In this document: positions 7,741 to 27,039 of the stretch, piece by piece | How the letters are laid out: every line of letters starts with the position of its first letter | Position numbering within the stretch: position 1 is the first letter of the stretch | Source: an uncultured virus (IMG/VR IMGVR_UViG_3300025410_000014) | Taxonomy: Duplodnaviria > Heunggongvirae > Uroviricota > Caudoviricetes | DNA length: 29,112 bases | IMG/VR virus record: IMGVR_UViG_3300025410_000014 | Reading direction: 5' to 3' (one strand) | The notes under the pieces: model-generated | The model's input: the letters and a program-made list of their open reading frames with translations, nothing else | Databases searched by the model: none | Told to the model about the DNA's origin: nothing | Translations under genes and position numbers: made by a program

Positions 7741-8631
7741 ATGAGCAACGACATCATGTTAGATTTGGGACTACCAAACTATTTAAAAGAGATTGAGTTA
7801 GACGAGACCACTAAAGCCCTAATGGGTGGCACAAGTGGTATGGGTATGAAGCGCATCTCCATCAAAGGTGGTGTGTGGAGACTCATGGCAAATGGCAAAG
7901 AGATTTCAAAGAATGAAGATCGTTCAATGAATGTTGTCATCGTTGCCGCCGCACCAAAAGTATCGAGAACTTTTTACTTGAAGAGTTACTCAGAAGGTAG
8001 CGAGCCTGCCGCACCTGATTGTTGGTCTGCTGATGGTGAAGTGCCTGATGCAAAGTCTTCTATTCCACAAGCCAAGCGTTGCATAGACTGCGATCAAAAC
8101 GTCAAAGGTTCAGGTCAAGGTGATAGCCGTGCTTGCAGATTCAGTCAACGTATTGCAGTTGTGTTGGCTAATGATATCAAGGGCGATGTCATGCAACTCA
8201 CATTACCATCTAAATCTATCTTCGGAGCGGGGGAGCCTGGGAAGTGGCCTCTACAAACATATGCAAAGATGTTAGGCAGTAAAGGTATACCAGTCACGGC
8301 CGTAGCAACTGAGATGCGTTTTGATACTAATAGCGCAACGCCTGTCATTACATTCAAACCTGTTCGTGTGCTTGAGACTCATGAGCATCAAGTTGTGATT
8401 GAGCAAGGCAAAACATTGGAAGCTAAGAACGCTATTACAATGACTGTTGCTGAGGCTGATGGTATTAAATTGCCTAAATTGGAAGCCCCTGTGGAAGCAC
8501 CCAAGGCTAAAGAACCAAAGGCTGAAGCTAAAGTGGAAGACGTTGAGCCAGTCAAACGCTCTGCTAAGAAGGAAGAAGAGCCAGCACCCAAGAAAGACTT
8601 GTCAAAGATTCTTGAAGAGTGGGATGACTAA
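7741..8631 (+). CDS. putative single-stranded DNA-binding/annealing protein
   Basis: AGGAG RBS; beta-rich core with a Cys cluster, flexible P/K/E/A linker and an acidic-aromatic C-terminus (EEWDD) typical of phage SSBs; replication context. Confidence 0.6.
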   Translation: MSNDIMLDLGLPNYLKEIELDETTKALMGGTSGMGMKRISIKGGVWRLMANGKEISKNEDRSMNVVIVAAAPKVSRTFYLKSYSEGSEPAAPDCWSADGEVPDAKSSIPQAKRCIDCDQNVKGSGQGDSRACRFSQRIAVVLANDIKGDVMQLTLPSKSIFGAGEPGKWPLQTYAKMLGSKGIPVTAVATEMRFDTNSATPVITFKPVRVLETHEHQVVIEQGKTLEAKNAITMTVAEADGIKLPKLEAPVEAPKAKEPKAEAKVEDVEPVKRSAKKEEEPAPKKDLSKILEEWDD

Positions 8632-8633
8632 TC

Positions 8634-8864
8634 ATGCCTAAAGGGTACTCACTTCTGACAGTGCAGGAAGTTAAGGAAGCCAATCAAAATTTGCTTGGTG
8701 TAAAACTGGGTAAAATTTGCATTGAACGAGACATCCCAGTCACAGACGTTGCAGAGTTCTTTGGAGTGAGCCGTGTAACTATCTACTCATGGTTTCGTGG
8801 GCAGGTAGTTGTATCGGGTAAACACGCAGAGAAAATGCAGAAGCTAATCACAAAATTAGCGTAA
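8634..8864 (+). CDS. XRE/Cro-like helix-turn-helix protein
   Basis: VTDVAEFFGVSRVTIYSWFRG is a canonical HTH. Confidence 0.85.
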   Translation: MPKGYSLLTVQEVKEANQNLLGVKLGKICIERDIPVTDVAEFFGVSRVTIYSWFRGQVVVSGKHAEKMQKLITKLA

Positions 8865-8869
8865 CGGTT

Positions 8870-8951
8870 TGAGGGGGCTAGGCTAGCTACCGAAAAGGGT
8901 GCTCCGTCTCATCCCTGCCCAACTCATTTAAAAGACGAACCAAGGACGGAT
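8870..8951 (+). promoter_or_regulatory. putative structured cis-regulatory RNA leader of the primase-helicase
   Basis: Outer stem 8870-8878/8917-8926, inner stem 8896-8901/8910-8916; loop TCCGTC (8903-8908) is complementary to GACGGA (8945-8950) next to the start codon. Confidence 0.6.
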
Positions 8952-11798
8952 ATGATTTCGAGAAACGAGTTTCTCAGGCTTGTGCTCCCCCCATTACAAG
9001 CTGATGAGTATTACTGCGCTTTCGGGATCGCAACAGTTAATGAAAAAGATATAGTTGATCAGAAGTTTGTAGATAGTATTGAAGAACTAAGTTATAAAGC
9101 AAACTACTTTGTTGAGTATAACTTTAATGCTTTCTTTGCTTTAGCTAAATATGGTGACCCGAAGAATGGGCGTACCACAAACAACGCAATATCTCTAAAG
9201 TCGTTTTTCATTGATCTTGATTGCGGGCCTGGAAAGCCTTATGCAGATTTGAGTGAAGGGCTTGTTGCCCTAAAAGATTTTTGTAAGAAAACAAAACTGC
9301 CTCGCCCAACTATTGTGAAGTCAGGGCTTGGTGCACACATATACTGGGTGCTTGATGAATCAATGCCGAGGAAACAATGGAAGCTCCATGCTGAGAGGCT
9401 GAAAGAGTTATGTGTAGAACACAAGTTTGATGTTGACCCCGCAGTCACAGGGGAAGCGGCACGGGTGCTTAGAGTGCCTGAGACTTACCATTTGAAAGAC
9501 CCAACCAATCCAATCTTGGTTGAGGTACTGCACGTTGCTCCGACCATAAGCAACATTAAAGACTTACTGCCCCCATCCGAAGATGCGTTGGCTGTGTTAG
9601 AAAGGGCTGAGTTTAAACGCCCAATGGATGCAGTGACGCTAGCGTTGATGGGTGCGAGCCAGTCTAGGTTTAAGACTATTCTAATTAAATCTGTCGAAGG
9701 CACAGGCTGTAAACAGATTGTTGGCATCTACGATAACCAACACGACATTGATGAGCCGTTGTGGAGAGCGGGACTAAGTATTGCGCACCAGTGTATAGAT
9801 AGGGATAAAGCAATCCATATCATATCGCACAAGCATCCTGATTACTCTGCAACAACTACTGAGAAGAAGGCCAACGAGACGAAGGGGCCTTACACATGTG
9901 AGACGTTTAAGAAACTAAATCCAAGTGGGTGCGAGGGATGCACACTAAAGATTACATCTCCAATTCAGATTGGCAAAGAGATTGTTGAGGCTACTGAAGA
10001 AGACAATAAGGTCATGGACTTAGAGCCTGAGACCAAAGAACTAAAAGAGTTTGTGATACCGAAGTATCCACATCCGTTCTTTAGAGGCAAAGTAGGTGGT
10101 ATATACCAAAGAGTCAAGACGGCAGATGGTGAAGAAGTAGAAGACATTGTGTACCCATACGACTTCTATGTTGTCAAGCGTATGCAAGACCCTGAATTGG
10201 GTGAGACAGTGCTACTGAGATTGCACTTGCCAAAAGATGGTGTACGTGAGTTCATTATGACGCTAGCCAGCGTATTATCCAAAGAGAAATTCATCAGCAC
10301 AGTTGCATCATTTGGTGTGACTGCATTAGGCAAAAAGCAGGATGCGCTTATGTATTATGTAACTAAATGGGTGGAAGAATTACAAATGAATTCGCAAGCA
10401 GAAAAAGCATATAAGCAATTTGGATGGATTGAAGACGAGTCAGGCATCATTGTCGGTGACAGAGAGATACGTGCAACAGAAGTGGTGTATAGCCCGCCAT
10501 CAAGCCCAACGCTACCGCACGTGCCGTTCTTCCAAGCCAAGGGCGACTTCCAAGTATGGAAAGATACAATTAATGTATACGGCAAAGAAGGCATGGAGGA
10601 CAGAGCCTTTGCATTCTTTATGGGCTTTGGCACTATGCTGATGAAATTTACGGCGCTTGATGGGTTTTTGCTAAACTTGTTTAGTCGTGAATCAGGATCA
10701 GGGAAAACCACTATTCTGCAAGCGATCAACAGTATCTACGGCAGACCAAAAGAACTCCTACTTTCTCCCAAGGATACATATAACTCACGCATGGGCAGGA
10801 TGGGAGTCATGCAAAACTTTGCGGTTACATTGGATGAGATTACCAATATGCCCGCTGATCAAATGTCGCAACAAGCCTATGACGTGACATCAGGTAGGGG
10901 CAAGAACCGCTACAAGCAGCATGAGAATGCAGAGCGCATGAATAACACCAAGTGGCAAACTGGCTTGATCACGTCATCTAACAGGGTCATTGCCGATGCA
11001 TTGCTATCTGTTAAGGGTTTTCCCGATGGTGAGTTGAAGCGCATAATGGAGATTAACATTAAGCCCGATCCGTTTGATGACGCAACATGGGCACGTCAAC
11101 ACTTTGGCAAACTAATGGATAACTACGGACATGCCATACAACCATACGCACAGGCATTGGTTGCCCAACTACCAATGGTCAAAGCACAGTTGGCAGAAGT
11201 CCAGTTGCGTATTGAGCAAGCCGCCAATATTAAAAACGCTGAGAGGTACTGGGCATTGATGGCATCCCTTAGTATCACAGGCGGGGCAATCGCTAAAACC
11301 CTTGGACTGCATGACATACCAATCAAACCAGTCTTTAACTACGCTATAGACCTAATAAATAATACACGGAACAAGACACGTGAGTACATGTTTGACGGAG
11401 ATGATTTCCTAGGTGGGTTCTTGCAACGCCACTTCTCTGAGATATTGGTCATTAACGGCAATAAGGATAACCGCACAGGGCTAGAGCATGGCCCGATCAA
11501 AGAGCCAAGGGGTGCATTGACTGCACGCTATGAGCCTGATACCAAGAATCTTTACATTGTTAACCGCACATATAGGGAAGATTGCGCTAAGAATTTTATG
11601 AACTACGAGGAGTCCTTAGCCCCGTATCGTAAATCCAAATCATTACTTGGCGTGAAGAAAAAGCGCATGACGGCAGGTACTCTTGCAAATACGCAAGCCC
11701 CAGTAAATGCACTGTGCTTTGATTCGACTAAGCTAGACTTCTTCAATGAGACTGTATTGTTAAATGCTGAAGATTCTAAATCTACCGATACTGATTGA
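8952..11798 (+). CDS. primase-helicase: N-terminal AEP/RepB'-like primase, Cys-containing linker, DUF927-like region and P-loop ATPase
   Basis: FFIDLD, KSGLGAHIYW, RVLRVPET (primase motifs); CETF...CEGC; Walker A ESGSGKTT; Walker B VTLDE; ITSSN. Confidence 0.88.
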   Translation: MISRNEFLRLVLPPLQADEYYCAFGIATVNEKDIVDQKFVDSIEELSYKANYFVEYNFNAFFALAKYGDPKNGRTTNNAISLKSFFIDLDCGPGKPYADLSEGLVALKDFCKKTKLPRPTIVKSGLGAHIYWVLDESMPRKQWKLHAERLKELCVEHKFDVDPAVTGEAARVLRVPETYHLKDPTNPILVEVLHVAPTISNIKDLLPPSEDALAVLERAEFKRPMDAVTLALMGASQSRFKTILIKSVEGTGCKQIVGIYDNQHDIDEPLWRAGLSIAHQCIDRDKAIHIISHKHPDYSATTTEKKANETKGPYTCETFKKLNPSGCEGCTLKITSPIQIGKEIVEATEEDNKVMDLEPETKELKEFVIPKYPHPFFRGKVGGIYQRVKTADGEEVEDIVYPYDFYVVKRMQDPELGETVLLRLHLPKDGVREFIMTLASVLSKEKFISTVASFGVTALGKKQDALMYYVTKWVEELQMNSQAEKAYKQFGWIEDESGIIVGDREIRATEVVYSPPSSPTLPHVPFFQAKGDFQVWKDTINVYGKEGMEDRAFAFFMGFGTMLMKFTALDGFLLNLFSRESGSGKTTILQAINSIYGRPKELLLSPKDTYNSRMGRMGVMQNFAVTLDEITNMPADQMSQQAYDVTSGRGKNRYKQHENAERMNNTKWQTGLITSSNRVIADALLSVKGFPDGELKRIMEINIKPDPFDDATWARQHFGKLMDNYGHAIQPYAQALVAQLPMVKAQLAEVQLRIEQAANIKNAERYWALMASLSITGGAIAKTLGLHDIPIKPVFNYAIDLINNTRNKTREYMFDGDDFLGGFLQRHFSEILVINGNKDNRTGLEHGPIKEPRGALTARYEPDTKNLYIVNRTYREDCAKNFMNYEESLAPYRKSKSLLGVKKKRMTAGTLANTQAPVNALCFDSTKLDFFNETVLLNAEDSKSTDTD

Positions 11799-11975: not shown

Positions 11976-12032
11976 TCAGTTGCACTCTACTTCCTAGAAG
12001 TACTTAGCCCCCGCTGGTCGGGGGCTTTTTTT
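11976..12032 (+). ncRNA. candidate small RNA (~55 nt)
   Basis: Lies between the predicted promoter and the intrinsic terminator; no ORF; internal hairpin TACTTC-CTA-GAAGTA (11988-12002). Boundaries are inferred. Confidence 0.4.
12006..12032 (+). terminator. rho-independent terminator between the convergent gene blocks
   Basis: AGCCCCCG-CTGGT-CGGGGGCT hairpin followed by a T-run. Confidence 0.92.
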
Positions 12033-15000
12033 CAATCTTCAGAAAACTTCTCTCTGATTTCGGGCAACAACTTCTTGTTGTAAACAATTCCGTCAATCAT
12101 GTTTTTCTCATTGGCTTTGCGTGCAGTCTCAGATTTCTGCAAAGTAGCTGATGTAATACGCTCACCCGGATGTGCTTCATTGAATGAAGTGATCTTGTCT
12201 TGGGTACTACTCATCAAATCTGTATCACCAGCCGTTCTTGCTAAGTCGTAGAGATTGAGCAACTTAGTCTTGCGTGCCAATACTTCTTTTTGGAACTGAG
12301 TACGTGCGCTAGACATTTCGTACATATTAGATAGATCAGCAGGTGCAAAGCCCGCTATCTGCATCAGGCCATTGTATGTATTGATGTCTGATTCAATTGG
12401 GTCACCCTTGAGAGTCTGCGCACCCTCAGTCATGTACCTAAACCCTTTCATACCATTACGCACAAAGCTAGGAGCTAAGGCTTCAAACGCACGTTCGGTA
12501 TGTCCTTCAGCCATCATCTTGGCAGCGTTTTCTGCGTTGACTGCATACGATGCGGCAGGGCCAAGAGCTTGTTGAATGATGGTTAATGTTAGGCCATGAT
12601 CTGCTACGCTACGTGGGTCATCACGATAGATTAGATCGGTTGCAAGACCAACACGATTAGATATCTCTAAATTAGTTAGATAGTTAACTGGGCCTTTGTA
12701 TGCAAACTCACCAAAGAAATCACGCATCTCTTCATTGAAGTCAAAAGGTTCATCATCGTCACCGAACAATGCGTTGATAATGCTGGCTAGAGTTGAAGCT
12801 GCTCCGTAAAAAGGTAGTCCTTTAGCGCCAGCAAATGCCATACCCATACCATACGTACCAATAAGTTGACGCATTGCAGCTTGGCGTACTACCGGTGTCT
12901 CACCTTTAAATGCTTGATGGAATGCACGACCAATAACGAATGCACTATTCCAAGCAAATGATTTAAATGTAAATGCTACCCTGCCTAGTGGGTGTTGCAT
13001 CCACTTGGGCGCAGTGACGGACATACCTGATGTATGTGCATCTTTAACAGTGTCGATGGCTTCACGGATAGCTTGTGCTTCGCTCTTACCTTTTTGTTTG
13101 GCTAAGTCATAAGCAGCCACGGCGGTAACGGCACGATTGTATTTTTCACTTGCGGCAAATGGAATACTCAAAGCACCCAACATCTTTGCTTTTAACCCAG
13201 TAAATTCACTTGTGCTTTGTCTGCGACCTTCCAATACTTCACGTGCCATCGTATGCTCAAGCTGACCATGATCCATCAGAGCTTCGTACAAATTCTTATA
13301 GCGTGCGTTTTTGTCTAGCCCGTTGATAGCAATTTTGCTTGCATTCATCATGGCGCTTGTAGCACCTGCAAACCCATACTTGCCACTCAATATAGGCCAT
13401 ACCATCATGGGTAATGAGGTCACGTTAACCAGCGCAGATGAGGCGTTACCTGCAATGTATTCCATATAGCTTAGTGTGGTTGCCCCACTTACTAAATCAC
13501 TATATGTTGGGTTGTGCATAAACCCACGTTGATCATAAACATTTTGTGCTGCGGCATATACGGCAGGGGTATTGGTATTGCTAGCTTCTGCGCCAATAGC
13601 ATCAATGGCTTTATCTATCTCTGGAGAATATGCAGAGTCAGAAAGCTTTCTTGCCCACTTGATCATGGTGTCGCCATAGCCACGCACAATGTCACGCTCC
13701 ATGCCACGCACGTTCTCGGACTTCATGAACTGTTTGACTAAAGACTGTGCGGGGAACAACGCTAAGTACGATTGGTACACATTGTTGAGCTGCTCTTGAC
13801 TTGCACCATTTTTTTGTAGCCCGTGCATGATCTGACCCAAGAACGATGTTGGTGGGACTAGACCTTGTTGATACTGTGCGTTTTGTAGATTTTGATAGGA
13901 CTTATGCTGTGCGCCTTTTAGCACATCCTTAATGAACTTATCACGTTCACGAATAGACTCAAACGCTGAAGCAGCACGTTCGCCAGTAGTAGGATCTGCA
14001 TACTCTACCCAAAAATCACCACGGCGCAGGAATGGTATGTACCCAGGCACACGGCGTTTAGTTTGGAACTCAGCTTTGATGCGAGCAGCAAGCGATGGCG
14101 TAGCGTTGGCTAATAGAATTTTTTCATACTCATTGATTGAGTCTTCATATGAATTGCGTATAGTCTTATAAACGTCTTGAACTTCTTTAGGTAATGCATG
14201 GTATATGGTTCTTAGTCTTGCAAACTCTGATGCGTTTTCTTTTGTTGTTGGGAATTTAGGGTTAAGGATGTCCACTTCTGCCAAGCGAGCATCGTAAGCC
14301 ATGTCATTCATGCGCTCCATTGCTGCCTTATGTTTCTTAAAGACATCAGTGAAGTGCTTGTAGTTTTTGTTGATTTCCTTGATGCGTCTCTCTTGCGTAC
14401 CATTACGTTTCTCAAGTGCATCTATCAATCGTTGGATTGAAGGAAGTTGTTTCTTGTAAATAGTGTTTAAGTGATCAAGGCGCAACAGCCCAAATGCTAA
14501 CTTAGTTGTGGATGGCCCTGCATACATAGGGCTATTTTTATCCGCAATGTTTGAGAATGTGTTTCTAGCTTTATCAACTGCTTCTCGTGTAAGGTTGGGC
14601 ATGTTTTTGCCAATTTCGCCTACTGTGCGAAAAGCATCATTAACTGCTTGTCCCGTGCTCATAAACATCTTTTCAGATGGCGTTGCTTCCACGTCCCGTG
14701 AAACATCTATAGCATCATTAATAAATTTCAAACCCGCATTATAAGCAGATTGACCTTTACGGAATCCAAAGAACTCAGCAATAGACTGCATGATTCTTTC
14801 AAACAAGTTGCCGCTCTTAGGGGCTTTGATTGTTTTAAGAACTGCTTGGAAGTTGGGGTTACCTACTAACTCAGAAGCAAACTCCTGCAAGTCCTGCGCA
14901 CCATAGGCAGCGCCTAATTGATTTTGTATTTGGTCAAAAAACTTTAAGAATTGTTTAGTAAGCGGATGGTTACGGTTATTAAGTACGTGCGATATTGCAG

Positions 15001-18000
15001 CGTGTGTAATCTCATGAATTGCAGTATGCTCATTTAGCCCATGTTCGGGGTCAAGCGTAATTGTGTTGGTAGCAGGATCATAAGAACCAGCTTTGCCAAA
15101 ACCAACTTCACCAATAACAATCTTGGGATTTAACCCAAGTGCTTTAAACCTACGCAATACTTGCTTGATCTCATTGTTATCAATGGTCTTGATTAAATGG
15201 TCAAGAATATTATTGACATTGCCTTTTTTAACTAGATCAATACCCGCAGCATCTAAATTCTTACCTTTATAAGCAGGGCCATAGAATGTATCTTTGCCCA
15301 AAATTATTTGCATTTCGTTTTTAAACTGCCTCTTAAAAGCTTCAGGCAATTTGTCCATTGCATAATTAATAGCTTCTAAGATTTGACCTTTGTTGAGCAG
15401 CGCTATAAATCCTGGCGTATCTTTCTTGGTCAGGTAGTTATTTTTTATGTGCGTTAATGCTTCTTTAAACCTATCGGCAGAATTAAACCCAGGCCCTTTA
15501 CGATTAGTTTCTTTTGGTTCGGGTGGTATAGAATCTTCGTAAGCTTTTTTACGTGCAGCAGCTTCAGCAACTTTTTGTTGCACTGTGCTTTCAAATTCTT
15601 GATTGCCTAGCTTAGTTACGTTGCTGAGAAACTCTGCTCTTTTACTAGGAGATAAAGTATCTAGATGCGCCAAAATCTGTGCACCTTCAGGGCTACCAGT
15701 TGTTATCTCATGGTGCAATCTTTCAAGCAACTGTTTGTTTTTGATCTTTTGCGCTGCATCTTCTTTAGTGGATATTTCTTTATCCAACTGCAATAGATGG
15801 CGATACTCGTTAATTAGAGCAGGTAACCGCAATACTTTATGCGTAGCCGTGCCACGATGCGAACCAATCTCTAAAAACTTGCTATCAATACCTTTTTCTT
15901 GTGCAGCTTCATGGATGCGTGAAGTTAGAATGCTATCTACACGCTTATCGTTTTCTTCAATAAAGTCTTCTTGTTCTTTATTGGCTTCGACCGCACCCTT
16001 CTTTGCTTTTTCTTTTTTGCTTTTAGTGGGTTGTTTTTCTACTGGAGCGGGCTGTTCAACTTTTCCTGCATGTTTTTCTTTTAATTTTGTTAAGGTATAG
16101 TGTTTACCTTCAATCTTATTTTCTCTTTCAGATAAACTAAGTATTTTTCGTTTAACAGCTTCTTCGTTGGTAGTTTCTTTAGCACCTTTAGGAGTGTATG
16201 CAGAAGGAGGATTAATTCCATCGTCAACAACCATTTTTCCATCTGGCAGACGAGTAACTTTTACGTCATTGACTATTGGATTTGGTGTACCGTCAGTATT
16301 TGTATAATGTTGAGTTAATCTGTAATGCGTACCCTCAACATTAGCAGCTTCAGCTACAGTTTTTAAATAGCCTTCATGACCGCCTAGTGTTTCTAGTACC
16401 TCATGAACATTTTCTTGTTTTTCTACTGGAGCGGGCTTTCGGACTTCTCCTGCATTAACGCTTGGAGCATTCTGTTCAGCAGGAACATTTCCATCTCGTT
16501 CAGTTGGTTCAACTGTTCCGGCGGCTCCTCCAGCGGGTTCGCTAACCACCTCATTGCTTGTTCCAGTTGTGGTTGTGTCAGGTCTTGTAGCATCTTCAAC
16601 TCCTTGGAATTCTGGGCGACCTAAGAATGCTTCTACATTCTCACGTGCTTTTGTACTTGTTGTCTTTTCTGCATATGCTTCAAGCACACGTTTAACTTCA
16701 GCGGCATCGGCCGGGTTACTGATGTCCTTACCATGTATCAACTTGTTTCTAATAAACGTGGCGGTACGTCCTATGCCCAGGCCCTTAAACGTATTGTCGT
16801 CTATGGTTGTGGGAAGTTGTTGTGGTGTTAGCTGTGTAGGCTTCTGGACTACGGTAGGCTCTGAAGCTACTGCGGTAGTTTGATCCACAGGTGCAGCAGC
16901 TTGTTGTTCTACAGGTGCAGCTTGTGGCGGCGCAGGTTGTTCTTGCACTGGCGCAGTAGGGGCGGCTTGTTGCGGTGCAACTGTTGGAGCAGCAGGTGCA
17001 ACTTGTTGTTGTGTGGGCAGTACAGGCTTGGGGCCACGCTTGGCTGCTAAATTCTCATTCTCAGCTCTTTGCTGTGCAATAGTTTGTGCCAAAGGTGATG
17101 GCTGTCTAGCCAATGACAACAAGTCAATCTTGGTTGGTGCAATCTCAGCAATAGCGGCTTTAAGTTTTGCAGCGGCTTCTTTAGTTGCAGCAGCTTGGCG
17201 TTGTTGTTCTAAGCGCTCACGATTAGCCGCAGCTTTGTCAGCTTTAGCCACAGTCATTTCAGCTTGCTTGGTGGGTGCGCCCTGCTCGTCAAACAAACTA
17301 CCTTGCACGCCTTTGGGTTCTTTTGGCTCTACAACTTTAGGTGGTTTTGCAAACTGTCCTTCTGGCAACAAAGTTGTGTATGGCCCCATCTCCATACCAG
17401 GCAACTGCATCTGTTGTTGCTCATTGTTAAACTGGTCTATGTTTGCGCTTTGACGATTTGCTTCCGCAGTTAATTGACGGCCTGCCCGTTTTTGCAAAGC
17501 TTGCTCGTATTGCTGGGCACGCTCTCTACCTGCACGCCCACGCTCAATTGCCCCAGTAGTTGCGCCAAACGCACCACCACCTACTGCACCACGGACACTA
17601 GACTCCATGATGCGGTTCCACTCAGGACTACCAAATATCTGAGGATTTTTACCTACAAAGTTTTCAGCAGCAATGCTAATGGCTTCTTGCATACCTTCGG
17701 TAATGCCTTCTTCCCCCGCCGCCGCAAGCATGTTGGATGCAACAGAACGTAGCAATCCTTTGTCCATGCCAGACTTTTCCAATACCTTTTCTACTATGCC
17801 CATCTTCATTGGGCCAGTAAGGTTCTTCATTAGATGTGCAGGTAGCACAGAATCTAGTGCAGCAGCGCCAGCACCAAACAAAGCAGCGGCCCCAGGAGCT
17901 AGTTCACCTGTTTTGTCATAGATGTTTTGGAATACTTCAGGAGCGTTCTGGGCATATGAACCTAGAAAGATACCTGCGTTTTGTCCACGTGCCGCATACT

Positions 18001-18535
18001 CTGCACCTTTAGTAGCAGCCACATGAGCTAATTCAGCAGGTGTAGCACCTGACTCAATAAGAGGCATAGCCGCACGACCAGCCGCAGCAACACCAAGACG
18101 GCGACCAACTGCCGCCCCAATACCCCCAGGTATCAAAGATGTTGCAATGTTAGGCACTTGCTCGGCGACATTCTCAAGCACAAACTTAGGTATGTCACTA
18201 ATACCCTTAACATCTTTTAAACTGCCGTACTGAGGCGAGTAGTATTTGTTTATCTCATTTTGCGTATCTTGCGCTTCTTGCATTTGTTGCTTGGCATAGT
18301 CATTAAAGCCCAATGCACTTGCACCCATTGCAGGAATAACATCAGTCAGAGTAGACCCCAACTGTTTAGCGCCACGCATAACGCCACGCTTTAATACTTC
18401 GCCAGTAGTGAACTCACCTTTAGGAAGTTCAAAATTATATTTTTTAGATAGAGCGTCTAATTGATCGCTAAGTTGATCCTGAGTTAGGTTGTCGTCAAAC
18501 CTAACTTGCCCAATTTTTGGTAGATCAAGTATCAT
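12032..18535 (-). CDS. giant internal virion/ejection protein, polyvalent-protein type, with zincin-like metallopeptidase motif
   Basis: 2167 aa. Gly/Ala-rich N-terminal third, disordered P/Q/A linker, GSYDPATNTITL...IHEITH...QEFASE metallopeptidase-like segment, helical C-terminal region. Last gene of the virion block. Confidence 0.75.
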   Translation of the reverse strand: MILDLPKIGQVRFDDNLTQDQLSDQLDALSKKYNFELPKGEFTTGEVLKRGVMRGAKQLGSTLTDVIPAMGASALGFNDYAKQQMQEAQDTQNEINKYYSPQYGSLKDVKGISDIPKFVLENVAEQVPNIATSLIPGGIGAAVGRRLGVAAAGRAAMPLIESGATPAELAHVAATKGAEYAARGQNAGIFLGSYAQNAPEVFQNIYDKTGELAPGAAALFGAGAAALDSVLPAHLMKNLTGPMKMGIVEKVLEKSGMDKGLLRSVASNMLAAAGEEGITEGMQEAISIAAENFVGKNPQIFGSPEWNRIMESSVRGAVGGGAFGATTGAIERGRAGRERAQQYEQALQKRAGRQLTAEANRQSANIDQFNNEQQQMQLPGMEMGPYTTLLPEGQFAKPPKVVEPKEPKGVQGSLFDEQGAPTKQAEMTVAKADKAAANRERLEQQRQAAATKEAAAKLKAAIAEIAPTKIDLLSLARQPSPLAQTIAQQRAENENLAAKRGPKPVLPTQQQVAPAAPTVAPQQAAPTAPVQEQPAPPQAAPVEQQAAAPVDQTTAVASEPTVVQKPTQLTPQQLPTTIDDNTFKGLGIGRTATFIRNKLIHGKDISNPADAAEVKRVLEAYAEKTTSTKARENVEAFLGRPEFQGVEDATRPDTTTTGTSNEVVSEPAGGAAGTVEPTERDGNVPAEQNAPSVNAGEVRKPAPVEKQENVHEVLETLGGHEGYLKTVAEAANVEGTHYRLTQHYTNTDGTPNPIVNDVKVTRLPDGKMVVDDGINPPSAYTPKGAKETTNEEAVKRKILSLSERENKIEGKHYTLTKLKEKHAGKVEQPAPVEKQPTKSKKEKAKKGAVEANKEQEDFIEENDKRVDSILTSRIHEAAQEKGIDSKFLEIGSHRGTATHKVLRLPALINEYRHLLQLDKEISTKEDAAQKIKNKQLLERLHHEITTGSPEGAQILAHLDTLSPSKRAEFLSNVTKLGNQEFESTVQQKVAEAAARKKAYEDSIPPEPKETNRKGPGFNSADRFKEALTHIKNNYLTKKDTPGFIALLNKGQILEAINYAMDKLPEAFKRQFKNEMQIILGKDTFYGPAYKGKNLDAAGIDLVKKGNVNNILDHLIKTIDNNEIKQVLRRFKALGLNPKIVIGEVGFGKAGSYDPATNTITLDPEHGLNEHTAIHEITHAAISHVLNNRNHPLTKQFLKFFDQIQNQLGAAYGAQDLQEFASELVGNPNFQAVLKTIKAPKSGNLFERIMQSIAEFFGFRKGQSAYNAGLKFINDAIDVSRDVEATPSEKMFMSTGQAVNDAFRTVGEIGKNMPNLTREAVDKARNTFSNIADKNSPMYAGPSTTKLAFGLLRLDHLNTIYKKQLPSIQRLIDALEKRNGTQERRIKEINKNYKHFTDVFKKHKAAMERMNDMAYDARLAEVDILNPKFPTTKENASEFARLRTIYHALPKEVQDVYKTIRNSYEDSINEYEKILLANATPSLAARIKAEFQTKRRVPGYIPFLRRGDFWVEYADPTTGERAASAFESIRERDKFIKDVLKGAQHKSYQNLQNAQYQQGLVPPTSFLGQIMHGLQKNGASQEQLNNVYQSYLALFPAQSLVKQFMKSENVRGMERDIVRGYGDTMIKWARKLSDSAYSPEIDKAIDAIGAEASNTNTPAVYAAAQNVYDQRGFMHNPTYSDLVSGATTLSYMEYIAGNASSALVNVTSLPMMVWPILSGKYGFAGATSAMMNASKIAINGLDKNARYKNLYEALMDHGQLEHTMAREVLEGRRQSTSEFTGLKAKMLGALSIPFAASEKYNRAVTAVAAYDLAKQKGKSEAQAIREAIDTVKDAHTSGMSVTAPKWMQHPLGRVAFTFKSFAWNSAFVIGRAFHQAFKGETPVVRQAAMRQLIGTYGMGMAFAGAKGLPFYGAASTLASIINALFGDDDEPFDFNEEMRDFFGEFAYKGPVNYLTNLEISNRVGLATDLIYRDDPRSVADHGLTLTIIQQALGPAASYAVNAENAAKMMAEGHTERAFEALAPSFVRNGMKGFRYMTEGAQTLKGDPIESDINTYNGLMQIAGFAPADLSNMYEMSSARTQFQKEVLARKTKLLNLYDLARTAGDTDLMSSTQDKITSFNEAHPGERITSATLQKSETARKANEKNMIDGIVYNKKLLPEIREKFSED
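16031..16455. repeat. direct repeat pair (23 bp exact, extending to 36/41) spaced 384 bp apart
   Basis: TTGTTTTTCTACTGGAGCGGGCT at 16031-16053 and 16415-16437; protein AGEVRKPAPVEKQ vs AGKVEQPAPVEKQ. Confidence 0.92.
16423..16593 (-). CDS. nested (+1 frame) 56-aa helical protein MLQDLTQPQLEQAMRWLANPLEEPPEQLNQLNEMEMFLLNRMLQALMQEKSESPLQ
   Basis: AAGGAG (16605-16600), 6-nt spacer, ATG 16593; open to TAG 16423. The host frame here is low-complexity. Confidence 0.65.
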   Translation of the reverse strand: MLQDLTQPQLEQAMRWLANPLEEPPEQLNQLNEMEMFLLNRMLQALMQEKSESPLQ

Positions 18536-18537
18536 TT

Positions 18538-20463
18538 TTATTGCATTAAATCATTAAAATGAGGAACTGAAGAATCACTATCGTCATAATTTAAGTTGTT
18601 TGTGGCATATGTTCTTTGTGCTGCTGCATGTACCCCAGCCAATTTAGGATTAGATCTCCAATTTTCTCCACCTTGGCGTTTAAGATCTTTTATTAAAGCC
18701 GTTTCTTCTGGGCTACCTACAAAAGATTGCATACCTTTTTGGAAAGCAGCATTATGTTTTATTTTATTTGCTTCCATTTGGTTCTGAACTGTTTGCCCTT
18801 TTAGTATAGCTTGCATGTTATGATTTCTTTCATTTTCTGCAAGAACTAATCGGTTGTATTCATTTCTGTCACCACGAGCTAAAGCTGCTTGTTTCATTTG
18901 CTCAGTATGCATCTTATTGTATAAGTCTGCACGGGTAAGACCAAGCTTACCAGACAATATAGCATTCTCTTCAGCACCACGTTGTCTATTAGCATTAGCC
19001 ATATAGGACACGCCTTGGCTTGCACCTTGACCAATATTAGCCGCAGCATATGGAGATGTGCCACCCATCATACCAAGACCTGCTTGTAGAAGTGCCATGT
19101 ACTTGTCGTTTTGATAGTTCTTCTCAACACCTTCTTGGCGCTGCTTTAGATAGTCTGCATACTGTTTAACGTAGTCATCATCAGGACTAACTTCCATGTT
19201 AGCGCCAGGTGGGTTATTTTGAATTGGCCCAAATCCTTGATCTTCTGCTTCGGTTGTTGCATCATAATTTGGAGTGCCCATTTGCGGATTAGCAGCTTGA
19301 GAATCAGCAGCAGGGTTATACCCAGGGCTTTCAGGCATTCCCGCTGGGGCAGTATTTGCAACTGGTGCAACTGGTTTAGCGGGAACTGCTCCAGCTTTTG
19401 CTCCTTGAGCCGCAATATGTGGATTGCCAATATAGGGTTTAGATATGTCTACGTTAGCTGGGTAGCCACCATTATCTGCGGGGGGTGCAGGATAAGGAGG
19501 AATAAAAAAGTTACTTAGTCGGTCAAGGAATCCGCCTTTATCAAAATGCACTTCACCACCAGCTTTACCTGCGGGTATGCCTTTAATATAGTCTTTGGTT
19601 TCTTTGGGTAGCTTGGACATGTCTGCGCCAGAAGCTAACCACTTATCTGTGTTGCCAGGCCCCCAGTTGTAAGCAATTGCTGCCAACTCATTGTTACCAT
19701 AACGGTTATGCAATGCGCCCAAATACTCACGCCCAACACGTGCAAACTCTTCGGGAGAATTACTGCGTGCGGGTTCTACACCAAACCCAGGACTTTTTAC
19801 TGTACCAGGCATGACTTGCATTTCTCCCATTGCTCCTTTTTCTGAAGTCAATAGATTGCCGTTCTTGTCGTAACGCTGCCCACGACTTTCCTTATAAAGC
19901 ACATGGTGCAACAAAGCATCATGCTGCTCTGGAGGTGTCTTGTTAATATCTTCTTTAAGCGCATGGTGTGCATTTTTTGCAGCAACACCTGCCATACCCG
20001 CTAGACTTTCGATACCTTCTTCGTCTTCGGGTTCTTCTTCAGCTTCCATTTGAGGAGCTTCTTGTTCCTGAGCAGGTGCACTAAGTTTTTGGAAAAGCAT
20101 ACGCTCTTCCTTGTTCATTCCAGAATCAGAACTATCATCGTCTTCTTCATCGTCATCAGCCTCACCACCATCAGCAAACGCAATAATGCCACCACCTGCG
20201 CCAGTCGCAACAGGTAAGTTACTTGGTAGTGCAGGTATGCCCGCAGGTTGAGCCGCTTCAGCCAAAATGCCTTGCGCAACTGTAGGAGGGTTAGGATTAG
20301 CGCCAGCAGTCTGCGTTGCCTGCATTTGTTTCTGCTGCTGCAATTTATCTTTAATTAGCGGTATGCCAATATACGCAGGTACAGACCCATCTTGCACACC
20401 TTTTTGCAATTCTTGGATTGAAAAAGCTTCAGGTTTATAAAGTAATTTTTGTACTATAGACAT
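18538..20463 (-). CDS. internal virion protein with soluble lytic transglycosylase (SLT) domain
   Basis: Catalytic KESRG, GAMGEMQVMPGT, AAIAYNWGPG, ETKDYI; flanked by acidic and P/A-rich disordered regions. Confidence 0.88.
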   Translation of the reverse strand: MSIVQKLLYKPEAFSIQELQKGVQDGSVPAYIGIPLIKDKLQQQKQMQATQTAGANPNPPTVAQGILAEAAQPAGIPALPSNLPVATGAGGGIIAFADGGEADDDEEDDDSSDSGMNKEERMLFQKLSAPAQEQEAPQMEAEEEPEDEEGIESLAGMAGVAAKNAHHALKEDINKTPPEQHDALLHHVLYKESRGQRYDKNGNLLTSEKGAMGEMQVMPGTVKSPGFGVEPARSNSPEEFARVGREYLGALHNRYGNNELAAIAYNWGPGNTDKWLASGADMSKLPKETKDYIKGIPAGKAGGEVHFDKGGFLDRLSNFFIPPYPAPPADNGGYPANVDISKPYIGNPHIAAQGAKAGAVPAKPVAPVANTAPAGMPESPGYNPAADSQAANPQMGTPNYDATTEAEDQGFGPIQNNPPGANMEVSPDDDYVKQYADYLKQRQEGVEKNYQNDKYMALLQAGLGMMGGTSPYAAANIGQGASQGVSYMANANRQRGAEENAILSGKLGLTRADLYNKMHTEQMKQAALARGDRNEYNRLVLAENERNHNMQAILKGQTVQNQMEANKIKHNAAFQKGMQSFVGSPEETALIKDLKRQGGENWRSNPKLAGVHAAAQRTYATNNLNYDDSDSSVPHFNDLMQ

Positions 20464-26442: not shown

Positions 26443-27039
26443 TTAACCGCCTAAAACGGAAAGGGCGTGTTGGGTTAATTTTATACGTTCTTCAAGACCA
26501 AATGTACCACCATTTATGCGTTTTGTTAAGCCCTCCCAGTTCTGCGCTTCAGCCAGATCGTTGCATCCATGAGTCTTCCAGAACCACCCAGCAGACAAAG
26601 CAGCATACATTGGGGTCGCAACAAGTTGCGGTTCTTTGACCATATCCCTCTGGACTGACTGCCCAAAGTGGTAATAGTTATCGTGTCCAGTCAACTGAAT
26701 ACAGCCCCGACCATGAAACCGCCAACCATCTCCTGATTTTTCATCACGGTTTCCCATTCGATTGGCGTAAATTCTGTTGGCAATCTTCTCGGGCTGGTGG
26801 GCGTAAAGGGCAAACTCATTGGGTTGAAACTTGTGTCCAAAGAGCTTTTGTAAGGTTTCGGCTCGATAGTTGAGGTTTTCTTCCAATGTTTTGAAACGGT
26901 TGCACTCGTGGCTGCACTGTCCGATAAAAGCTGCCTGCTTCTTGACATCGTTCATCCCAAACGTAGTAAAAGTTGTAGTCAATGGCTCTGACCATTCAGC
27001 ACCTATCCCGAGCTGATTGAGCTTCTCAGGGCTTAACAT
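26443..27039 (-). CDS. endolysin, glycoside hydrolase family 19
   Basis: FIGQCSHEC...LEENLNY, GDGWRFHGRGCIQLTG, SAGWFW, TKRINGGTFGLEER. Confidence 0.92.
   Translation of the reverse strand: MLSPEKLNQLGIGAEWSEPLTTTFTTFGMNDVKKQAAFIGQCSHECNRFKTLEENLNYRAETLQKLFGHKFQPNEFALYAHQPEKIANRIYANRMGNRDEKSGDGWRFHGRGCIQLTGHDNYYHFGQSVQRDMVKEPQLVATPMYAALSAGWFWKTHGCNDLAEAQNWEGLTKRINGGTFGLEERIKLTQHALSVLGG

Follow-up and report, generated by a model that had tools for sequence, protein, structure and literature searches.

In a 29,112-nt stretch of DNA from an uncultured Caudoviricetes virus (IMG/VR record IMGVR_UViG_3300025410_000014; hereafter the window), we found an RNA leader element at 8870-8926 that, on comparative evidence, is a real three-way-junction RNA and a divergent int-alpA-type RNA (Rfam RF02996). 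It lies in the 87-nt gap between the stop codon of a helix-turn-helix (HTH) gene, which ends at 8864, and the ATG of a primase-helicase gene at 8952. One of its hairpin loops, the guide loop L3 (CTCCGTCT, 8902-8909), can pair with either of two downstream sites, one of them at the ribosome-binding site (RBS) of the primase-helicase. We consider it probable that the element is a portable int-alpA-type leader acting as a translation throttle on that gene. A preliminary description of the window had given the 87-bp gap, the outer stem at 8870-8878/8917-8926 and the coordinates of the loop and its sites, and all of these, with the letters it quoted, were borne out.

The element was present in 65 of 66 viral loci that had been collected solely on primase similarity (53-100% identity), and 33 of these primase-linked loci, chosen for diversity, were aligned for RNAalifold and covariation analysis. 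RNAalifold returned the identical three-way junction, with two-sided changes in 12 of 15 pairs. Stem pairing held in 98.2% of 559 alignment cells, compared to 34-57% in slid controls and with none of 500 shuffles as high, and two-sided changes occurred in 10 of 17 named pairs, all three stems included. A comparison of G-U with A-C pairs on the stems gave no clear strand signal.

All leader features lie on the plus strand. The outer stem P1 joins 8870-8878 to 8917-8926, with two-sided changes in three of its four junction-proximal pairs. Its 5' strand is followed by the junction strand UA (8879-8880), part of a CUAG that is near-invariant in the 33 homologues and also found in the Rfam int-alpA consensus. 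Hairpin P2 (8881-8891) is a 2-3-bp stem with a self-complementary loop, L2, a candidate RNA-RNA dimer contact in which two 6-nt palindromes overlap (UAGCUA, 8884-8889, and GCUAGC, 8882-8887). The junction strand GAAAA (8892-8896; GAARA across the family) leads into P3 (8897-8914), the hairpin that bears L3, and covariation sets the register of its stem as GGGUG (8897-8901) on CAUCC (8910-8914) with one G-U pair; 100% of its cells are paired, and four of its five pairs show two-sided changes. The junction strand CU (8915-8916) and the 3' strand of P1 (8917-8926) complete the element at 8915-8926, supported by covariation and RNAalifold. The multi-stem fold previously proposed is therefore kept in outline as a conserved, covarying three-way junction, but its inner stem, AGGGTG/CATCCCT (six letters against seven), was out of register, and GAAAA and CU are junction strands.

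Downstream of the junction lie the two partners of L3. Site 1, the proximal or decoy site (AGACG, 8933-8937), forms 5 bp with 8905-8909 at -19 to -15 from the AUG; it begins 15 nt past the junction CUG, as is typical of the family, shows covariation at its flanking positions and is weak in the window's lineage. Site 2, the RBS site (8944-8950, including GACGGA at 8945-8950), forms six Watson-Crick pairs and one G-U pair with 8903-8909 at -8 to -2, spanning the 3' end of a Shine-Dalgarno (SD)-like AAGGA (8942-8946, its AGG conserved) and the spacer between SD and AUG. The consensus fold of the 33 homologues (RNAalifold) contained no conserved hairpin over the SD. A weak hairpin predicted at 8947-8960, which connects site 2 and the first few codons around an AUG-containing loop, is likewise absent from the consensus fold.

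To follow the element beyond primases we used a pattern on the junction bases, which located at least 121 viral and at least 120 genomic stretches. With the primase loci included, 317 candidates were parsed, 201 passed a stem filter and 114 remained after removal of near-duplicates (24 from the primase clade and 90 others). The filter dropped 102 genomic, 11 viral and 3 primase-set candidates, and 102 of the 120 genomic pattern matches were treated as chance because they failed it. Three further scans supplied an out-of-sample set (at least 309 loci, 310 candidates, 295 past the filter, 127 new and non-redundant). Junction bases in most sets were fixed by the search pattern, and family-wide counts outside the primase loci are counts among the matches listed by these scans. 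The motif is common in phages, and the genes behind it are diverse: among 64 downstream open reading frames scanned of 84 called, 23 were replication genes, 12 encoded endonucleases, 5 antirepressor or Rha-type proteins, 2 integrases and 4 other products, with 18 unassigned.

L3 varied freely across this collection, yet the loop and both sites changed together in front of unrelated genes. Two separate sites of at least 5 Watson-Crick bp within 50 nt downstream were found in 19 of 24 primase-clade elements and 63 of 90 others, compared to 2.7% and 4.1%, respectively, with swapped loops, and the result was repeated out of sample (81 of 127 versus 3.4%). In the 50 nt upstream, double sites occurred in 0 of 24, 1 of 90 and 5 of 125 elements, and single sites were at background. 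Site 1 followed the junction at a median of 15 nt (interquartile range 14-17), with no significant correlation between this offset and P3 length, while site 2 started about 14 nt after site 1 and abutted or overlapped the SD, its position relative to the AUG being about -7 to -2 in the primase clade and about -13 to -8 elsewhere. Site 1 formed the longer helix in 71 elements and site 2 in 14, with 32 ties. In the window itself, a 6-bp plus 5-bp pair of sites arose in 0.035% of 20,000 shuffles of the 25 nt after the stem, a post hoc figure. Because the same L3 bases serve both sites, one loop cannot hold both. The preliminary description had proposed just such pairing of the loop with the RBS site or, alternatively, with AGACG, and both pairings proved conserved and covarying. 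Across homologous leaders, the base before the CCG of L3 paired with site 2 in 42 of 51 distinct clade leaders (33 expected; three rows were mis-anchored), as G-C in 37, A-U in 3 and U-A in 2, the window having U8903-A8950.

The preliminary description had treated the small GG-CTAGCTA-CC loop as filler, a view we abandon: judging from its variants, L2 is kept self-complementary through sequence change and is under selection. A 4-nt palindrome was present in 24 of 39 distinct L2 loops, compared to 9.1 in within-loop shuffles (20 versus 8.2 expected when centred palindromes were excluded), and out of sample in 21 of 28 loops not met before, where 9.5 were expected and none of 10,000 shuffles exceeded 19; six of the words were new. 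Controls were flat, with palindromes in 16 of 64 chance pattern matches (14.3 expected) and 11 of 97 L3 loops (21.6 expected). In 13-nt P2s, the 4-mer occupied a single register, with outer and inner positions both complementary in 24 of 26 and four pair types at each. Adjacent bases such as the inner two are unable to pair inside a single hairpin, so that their complementarity suggests contact between two RNA molecules. In the 11-nt class, to which the window belongs, the inner pair was complementary in 30 of 31. Predicted energies are consistent with dimer formation through L2, the window P2 giving a self-duplex of -12.8 kcal/mol compared to -6.9 kcal/mol for shuffled loops and cofolding favouring a P2-linked dimer by about 5 kcal/mol. 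A role for the palindrome at the DNA level, as an operator or methylation site, was ranked low, given 13 different 4-nt words, unrelated neighbouring genes and target sites tied to the start codon.

Retroviral dimer-loop palindromes are 6 nt long, whereas those of this family are 4 nt, lie in a bacterial mRNA leader and would form a dimer predicted from sequence. Retroviral RNA dimers are held together by palindromic kissing loops and also feature GACG tetraloops (PMC516450), and the shared features are a self-complementary loop, a fixed register and often a purine on each side. The int-alpA-type family also has a GACG-loop subclass, its enrichment out of sample not being significant (2 versus 0.8, p=0.18).

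Rfam searches identified the element's kin. At the gathering score the whole window gave no match; a relaxed search revealed a kinship which the preliminary description had not recognised, with int-alpA (RF02996) as the sole match up to E 10, covering model positions 1-71 of 71 at 26.9 bits (E 7.4e-4, 221-nt search), below the gathering cut-off of 35.8 bits. Among 20 primase-linked loci, 6 scored above the cut-off and 9 more matched below it, and 18 of 20 pattern-found loci before other genes matched, 11 of them above. Since the window copy falls below the cut-off and 6 of 20 related loci lie above, we call it int-alpA-type and not a formal member. It shares with int-alpA the full-length model match, the three-way junction, the UA, GAARA and CU strands and covarying stems; the model's consensus loop CCUU likewise matches its own tail AAGG, and the model stops short of site 2. 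The window copy sits between HTH and DUF927 genes, not beside int or alpA, which from the family name are presumably the usual context. Five copies in bacterial genomes (L203, L216, L245, L248 and L277, with labels of Desulfarculaceae, Proteobacteria, Bradyrhizobium and Planctomycetota) directly follow an integrase gene, which fits that name. The window has a single copy, and the nearest record (G001) had no RF02996 match and one match with the model built here. Elsewhere, contigs with two copies were seen (L119/L120, L127, L181 and L468/L469); guide loop and small loop both differ in three pairs, two of them from near-identical genomes, and one pair is identical.

Rfam types RF02996 as 'Gene; sRNA', and we take the motif to come first from Weinberg et al. 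2017. Those parts of its main text that were covered (PMC5737381) do not name int-alpA. Rows of the supplement to Fremin et al. 2023 pair RF02996 with 8 of their IMG/VR motifs, so the presence of int-alpA in DNA viruses is already on record. In the portions of the int-alpA literature searched, which did not extend to the Weinberg 2017 supplement, where the first pseudoknot may be shown, we found no stated function, mechanism, two-site design or self-complementary loop; within the same bounds, the self-complementarity of L2 is an added result.

Pairing of L3 with site 2 probably represses translation, and pairing with site 1 probably permits it: L3 on site 2 would block initiation, and L3 on site 1 would leave the SD free and allow it. 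Whether RNA concentration sets the balance of the throttle, through RNA self-pairing, is a nearly even question. Two RNA copies would dock through L2, and the docked partner's L3 would cover site 2 while the mRNA's own L3 parks on site 1. A second mRNA could serve as the partner, as could a fragment, produced by termination or trimming, that ends after P1 and would have its L3 free. For the action of a short RNA on the long mRNA it belongs to, the IsrK RNA of Gifsy-1 is a phage precedent (PMC4825925). In this way, the accumulation of phage transcripts would feed back negatively on a dosage-sensitive replication protein. We favour RNA self-association as the trigger because it alone explains both the doubled site and the palindromic loop. 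We put forward only tentatively the wider idea that int-alpA-type leaders are protein-free RNA concentration sensors, in which palindromic docking would place a guide loop on a partner's RBS and a decoy would guard against self-silencing. If true, they would be a reprogrammable dosage-feedback module used by phages and islands for primases, replication initiators, homing endonucleases and antirepressors. If the dimer forms, the leader would be a compact programmable part, a feedback on translation that tallies its own transcripts and needs neither protein nor ligand nor counter-transcript; should pairing act only in cis, an orphan Rfam family would still gain a function. The guide loop, the two target sites and the self-complementary loop are three separable, mutable parts.

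Several results weigh against this scheme. As a single sequence, the window fold is no stabler than shuffles (z=+0.78), and its predicted minimum-energy fold differs from the three-way junction and lies 6.4 kcal/mol lower. In a single-sequence, pseudoknot-free model, the probabilities of the window's P2 and P3 are close to 0, and over 241 elements their medians are 0.23 and 0.37, respectively. Seven site-2 mismatches before CCG are uncompensated (five U-C, one A-A and one C-U), mostly in the window's nearest relatives. The window's site 2 forms a stronger helix than site 1 (-9.7 versus -4.5 kcal/mol), so its own loop may cover the RBS without a partner, and in the primase clade the strengths of the two sites are not separable (10 versus 6, 8 ties, p=0.18). 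As for the dimer, the outer L2 pair is complementary, completing the 4-bp palindrome, in only 14 of 31 P2s of the 11-nt class, the extended-duplex energy test was not significant (p=0.18), and pairing of 5-6 bp between molecules is weak. The shuffle tests also ignore relatedness, and the spread of loop words and gene contexts is the better argument. Lastly, among primases at 38-46% identity, a relaxed search matched the junction in 28 of 72 distinct leaders, one match being false on inspection by eye; 7 leaders carried a single 5-bp site and 2 carried both sites, one of these being the false match.

A purely cis-acting attenuator or timer is possible, though we doubt it. L3 would sit briefly on the early-made site 1 (ON) before shifting to site 2 (OFF); alternatively, a fixed low rate would follow from the helix ratio alone. 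Neither version involves an outside trigger. The fixed register of site 1 and the stronger site-2 helix of the window agree with this, and no partner is needed. However, it leaves the selection on L2 self-complementarity unexplained, and the usual excess of site-1 helix length (71 versus 14) is the wrong way round for a timer.

A sensing switch is unlikely, in which a small molecule, an ion or a host protein would bind the invariant junction (UA, GAARA and CU) and so shift L3 from one site to the other. Such a switch would account for the conservation of unpaired junction bases, seen both in phage loci and in genomes with labels from several phyla, and the nested fold, being marginal, may require stabilisation. 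However, those bases were set by the search pattern in most sets, the L2 palindromes would go unexplained, and the downstream genes are mutually unrelated and non-metabolic, which also argues against autoregulation by the product. Rfam searches of the window matched no riboswitch family.

We consider it improbable that translational coupling is at work, with a ribosome terminating on the HTH gene opening the base of P1 and freeing the primase RBS. In 21 of 24 non-redundant leaders of the primase clade, the HTH stop precedes CTAG by 10-18 nt, and termination on a leader peptide drives the ColIb-P9 pseudoknot (PMC4705826). A primase relative at 61% identity (L065) has neither the HTH gene nor the element, and there the upstream gene ends about 25 nt before the start (1770-1800). 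However, tight spacing is equally plain genome compaction, two loci (L098 and L123) retain the element before a primase without this HTH gene, and in 82 other elements the distance to the upstream stop varies between -9 and 358 nt. HTH coupling is therefore not required, since the element precedes primases without this HTH gene and unrelated genes at any stop distance. Of the two-state switch on primase translation envisaged in the preliminary description, the two-site anatomy is upheld by conservation and covariation, and translation of the HTH gene falls away as a needed input.

Very improbable, in our view, is a processed antisense RNA of the P4 CI/c4 type acting by premature termination, or an activating pseudoknot of the repZ type that a counter-transcript holds in check. 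The phage context, the replication genes downstream and the U-rich linker after P1 (46-55% U; a four-U run in 11 of 24 and 33 of 90 elements) would suit either. P4 CI RNA pairs with two flanking sites, ends transcription and controls replication genes, and IsrK, whose short form acts in trans on its own long mRNA, is an activator (PMC4825925). Likenesses to the window are a prophage leader RNA, a short form acting in trans and, for CI, two sites and replication genes; in the window, however, a short form would be hypothetical and both sites are downstream, the 50 nt upstream holding the few double sites counted above. In ColIb-P9, the repZ pseudoknot activates, a hairpin hides the SD and the Inc RNA counter-transcript is the competitor (PMC4705826). 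There too a hairpin loop pairs near the SD of a replication gene, an upstream reading frame terminates nearby and a single loop has two rival partners. In the window, by contrast, a direct repeat on the same strand takes the competitor's place, the partner site is not upstream of the SD but on the SD-AUG spacer (-8 to -2), where a helix should block and not help, and the consensus fold has no conserved SD hairpin. Rfam searches gave no C4 or PK-repZ match, and positions 8500-9200 held no terminator-like site and no minus-strand promoter of the sigma-70 type, the only type sought. Chance pairing in a short intergenic gap, which the fold's lack of stability over shuffles and the score below the Rfam cut-off might suggest, is refuted by the conservation and covariation of the stems and by loop-site pairing replicated out of sample.

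A further parallel is found in the homing endonucleases of T4, where local RBS-sequestering hairpins are relieved by an internal late promoter (PMC2988022). As there, RNA structure would limit translation of a DNA-acting gene within a long transcript, and the int-alpA-type family often precedes HNH genes; the block in the window would instead be a loop-to-RBS pseudoknot with a second site. The T4 hairpins show the reason for throttling genes of this kind.

Primases of the wider family can do without the element. Thirteen distant primase leaders (L643, L647-L649, L651, L657, L659, L677, L696, L702-L704 and L708; around 1070-1200) keep the three-way junction with a long loop, mostly a UGCA palindrome, that has no downstream match, and with a separate local hairpin over the SD region; in this group the junction may serve some function other than pairing with the RBS. 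Two further leaders (L630 and L645, around 1090-1160) have a long P2 insertion and no clear target sites. The element was not seen by eye in two distant cultured relatives, Pseudomonas phage Rollin and Rhizobium phage RHph_TM3_14A, and blastn of the window against GenBank phages gave no match.

The window is a phage segment. Its plus strand carries genes for DNA polymerase A, a PD-(D/E)XK nuclease, an SNF2 helicase, DUF7307, a 296-aa protein, the HTH protein and the DUF927 primase-helicase. The 76-aa HTH gene (8634-8864, plus strand; Cro/Xre-like, Pfam HTH_3, E 6.7e-5) stops 5 nt 5' of the base of P1. The presumed regulated gene (8952-11798, plus strand) encodes a 948-aa primase-helicase (Pfam DUF927, E 1.3e-22) with PHROG matches to polymerase/primase at residues 70-192 and to primase/helicase at 358-777; no solved structure related to it by sequence was found. 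The 296-aa gene (7741-8631), which has no Pfam family and is kept upstream of the primase even in distant cultured phages, encodes an acidic tail ending in WDD and looks like a putative single-strand-binding or annealing protein. Facing the replication genes on the minus strand are genes with LPD39, SLT and GH19 domains: a 2167-aa LPD39-domain protein (12032-18535, minus strand) adjoins the SLT protein (18538-20463), and the GH19 protein is nearby (26443-27039). These proteins probably serve virion-ejected and lysis functions.

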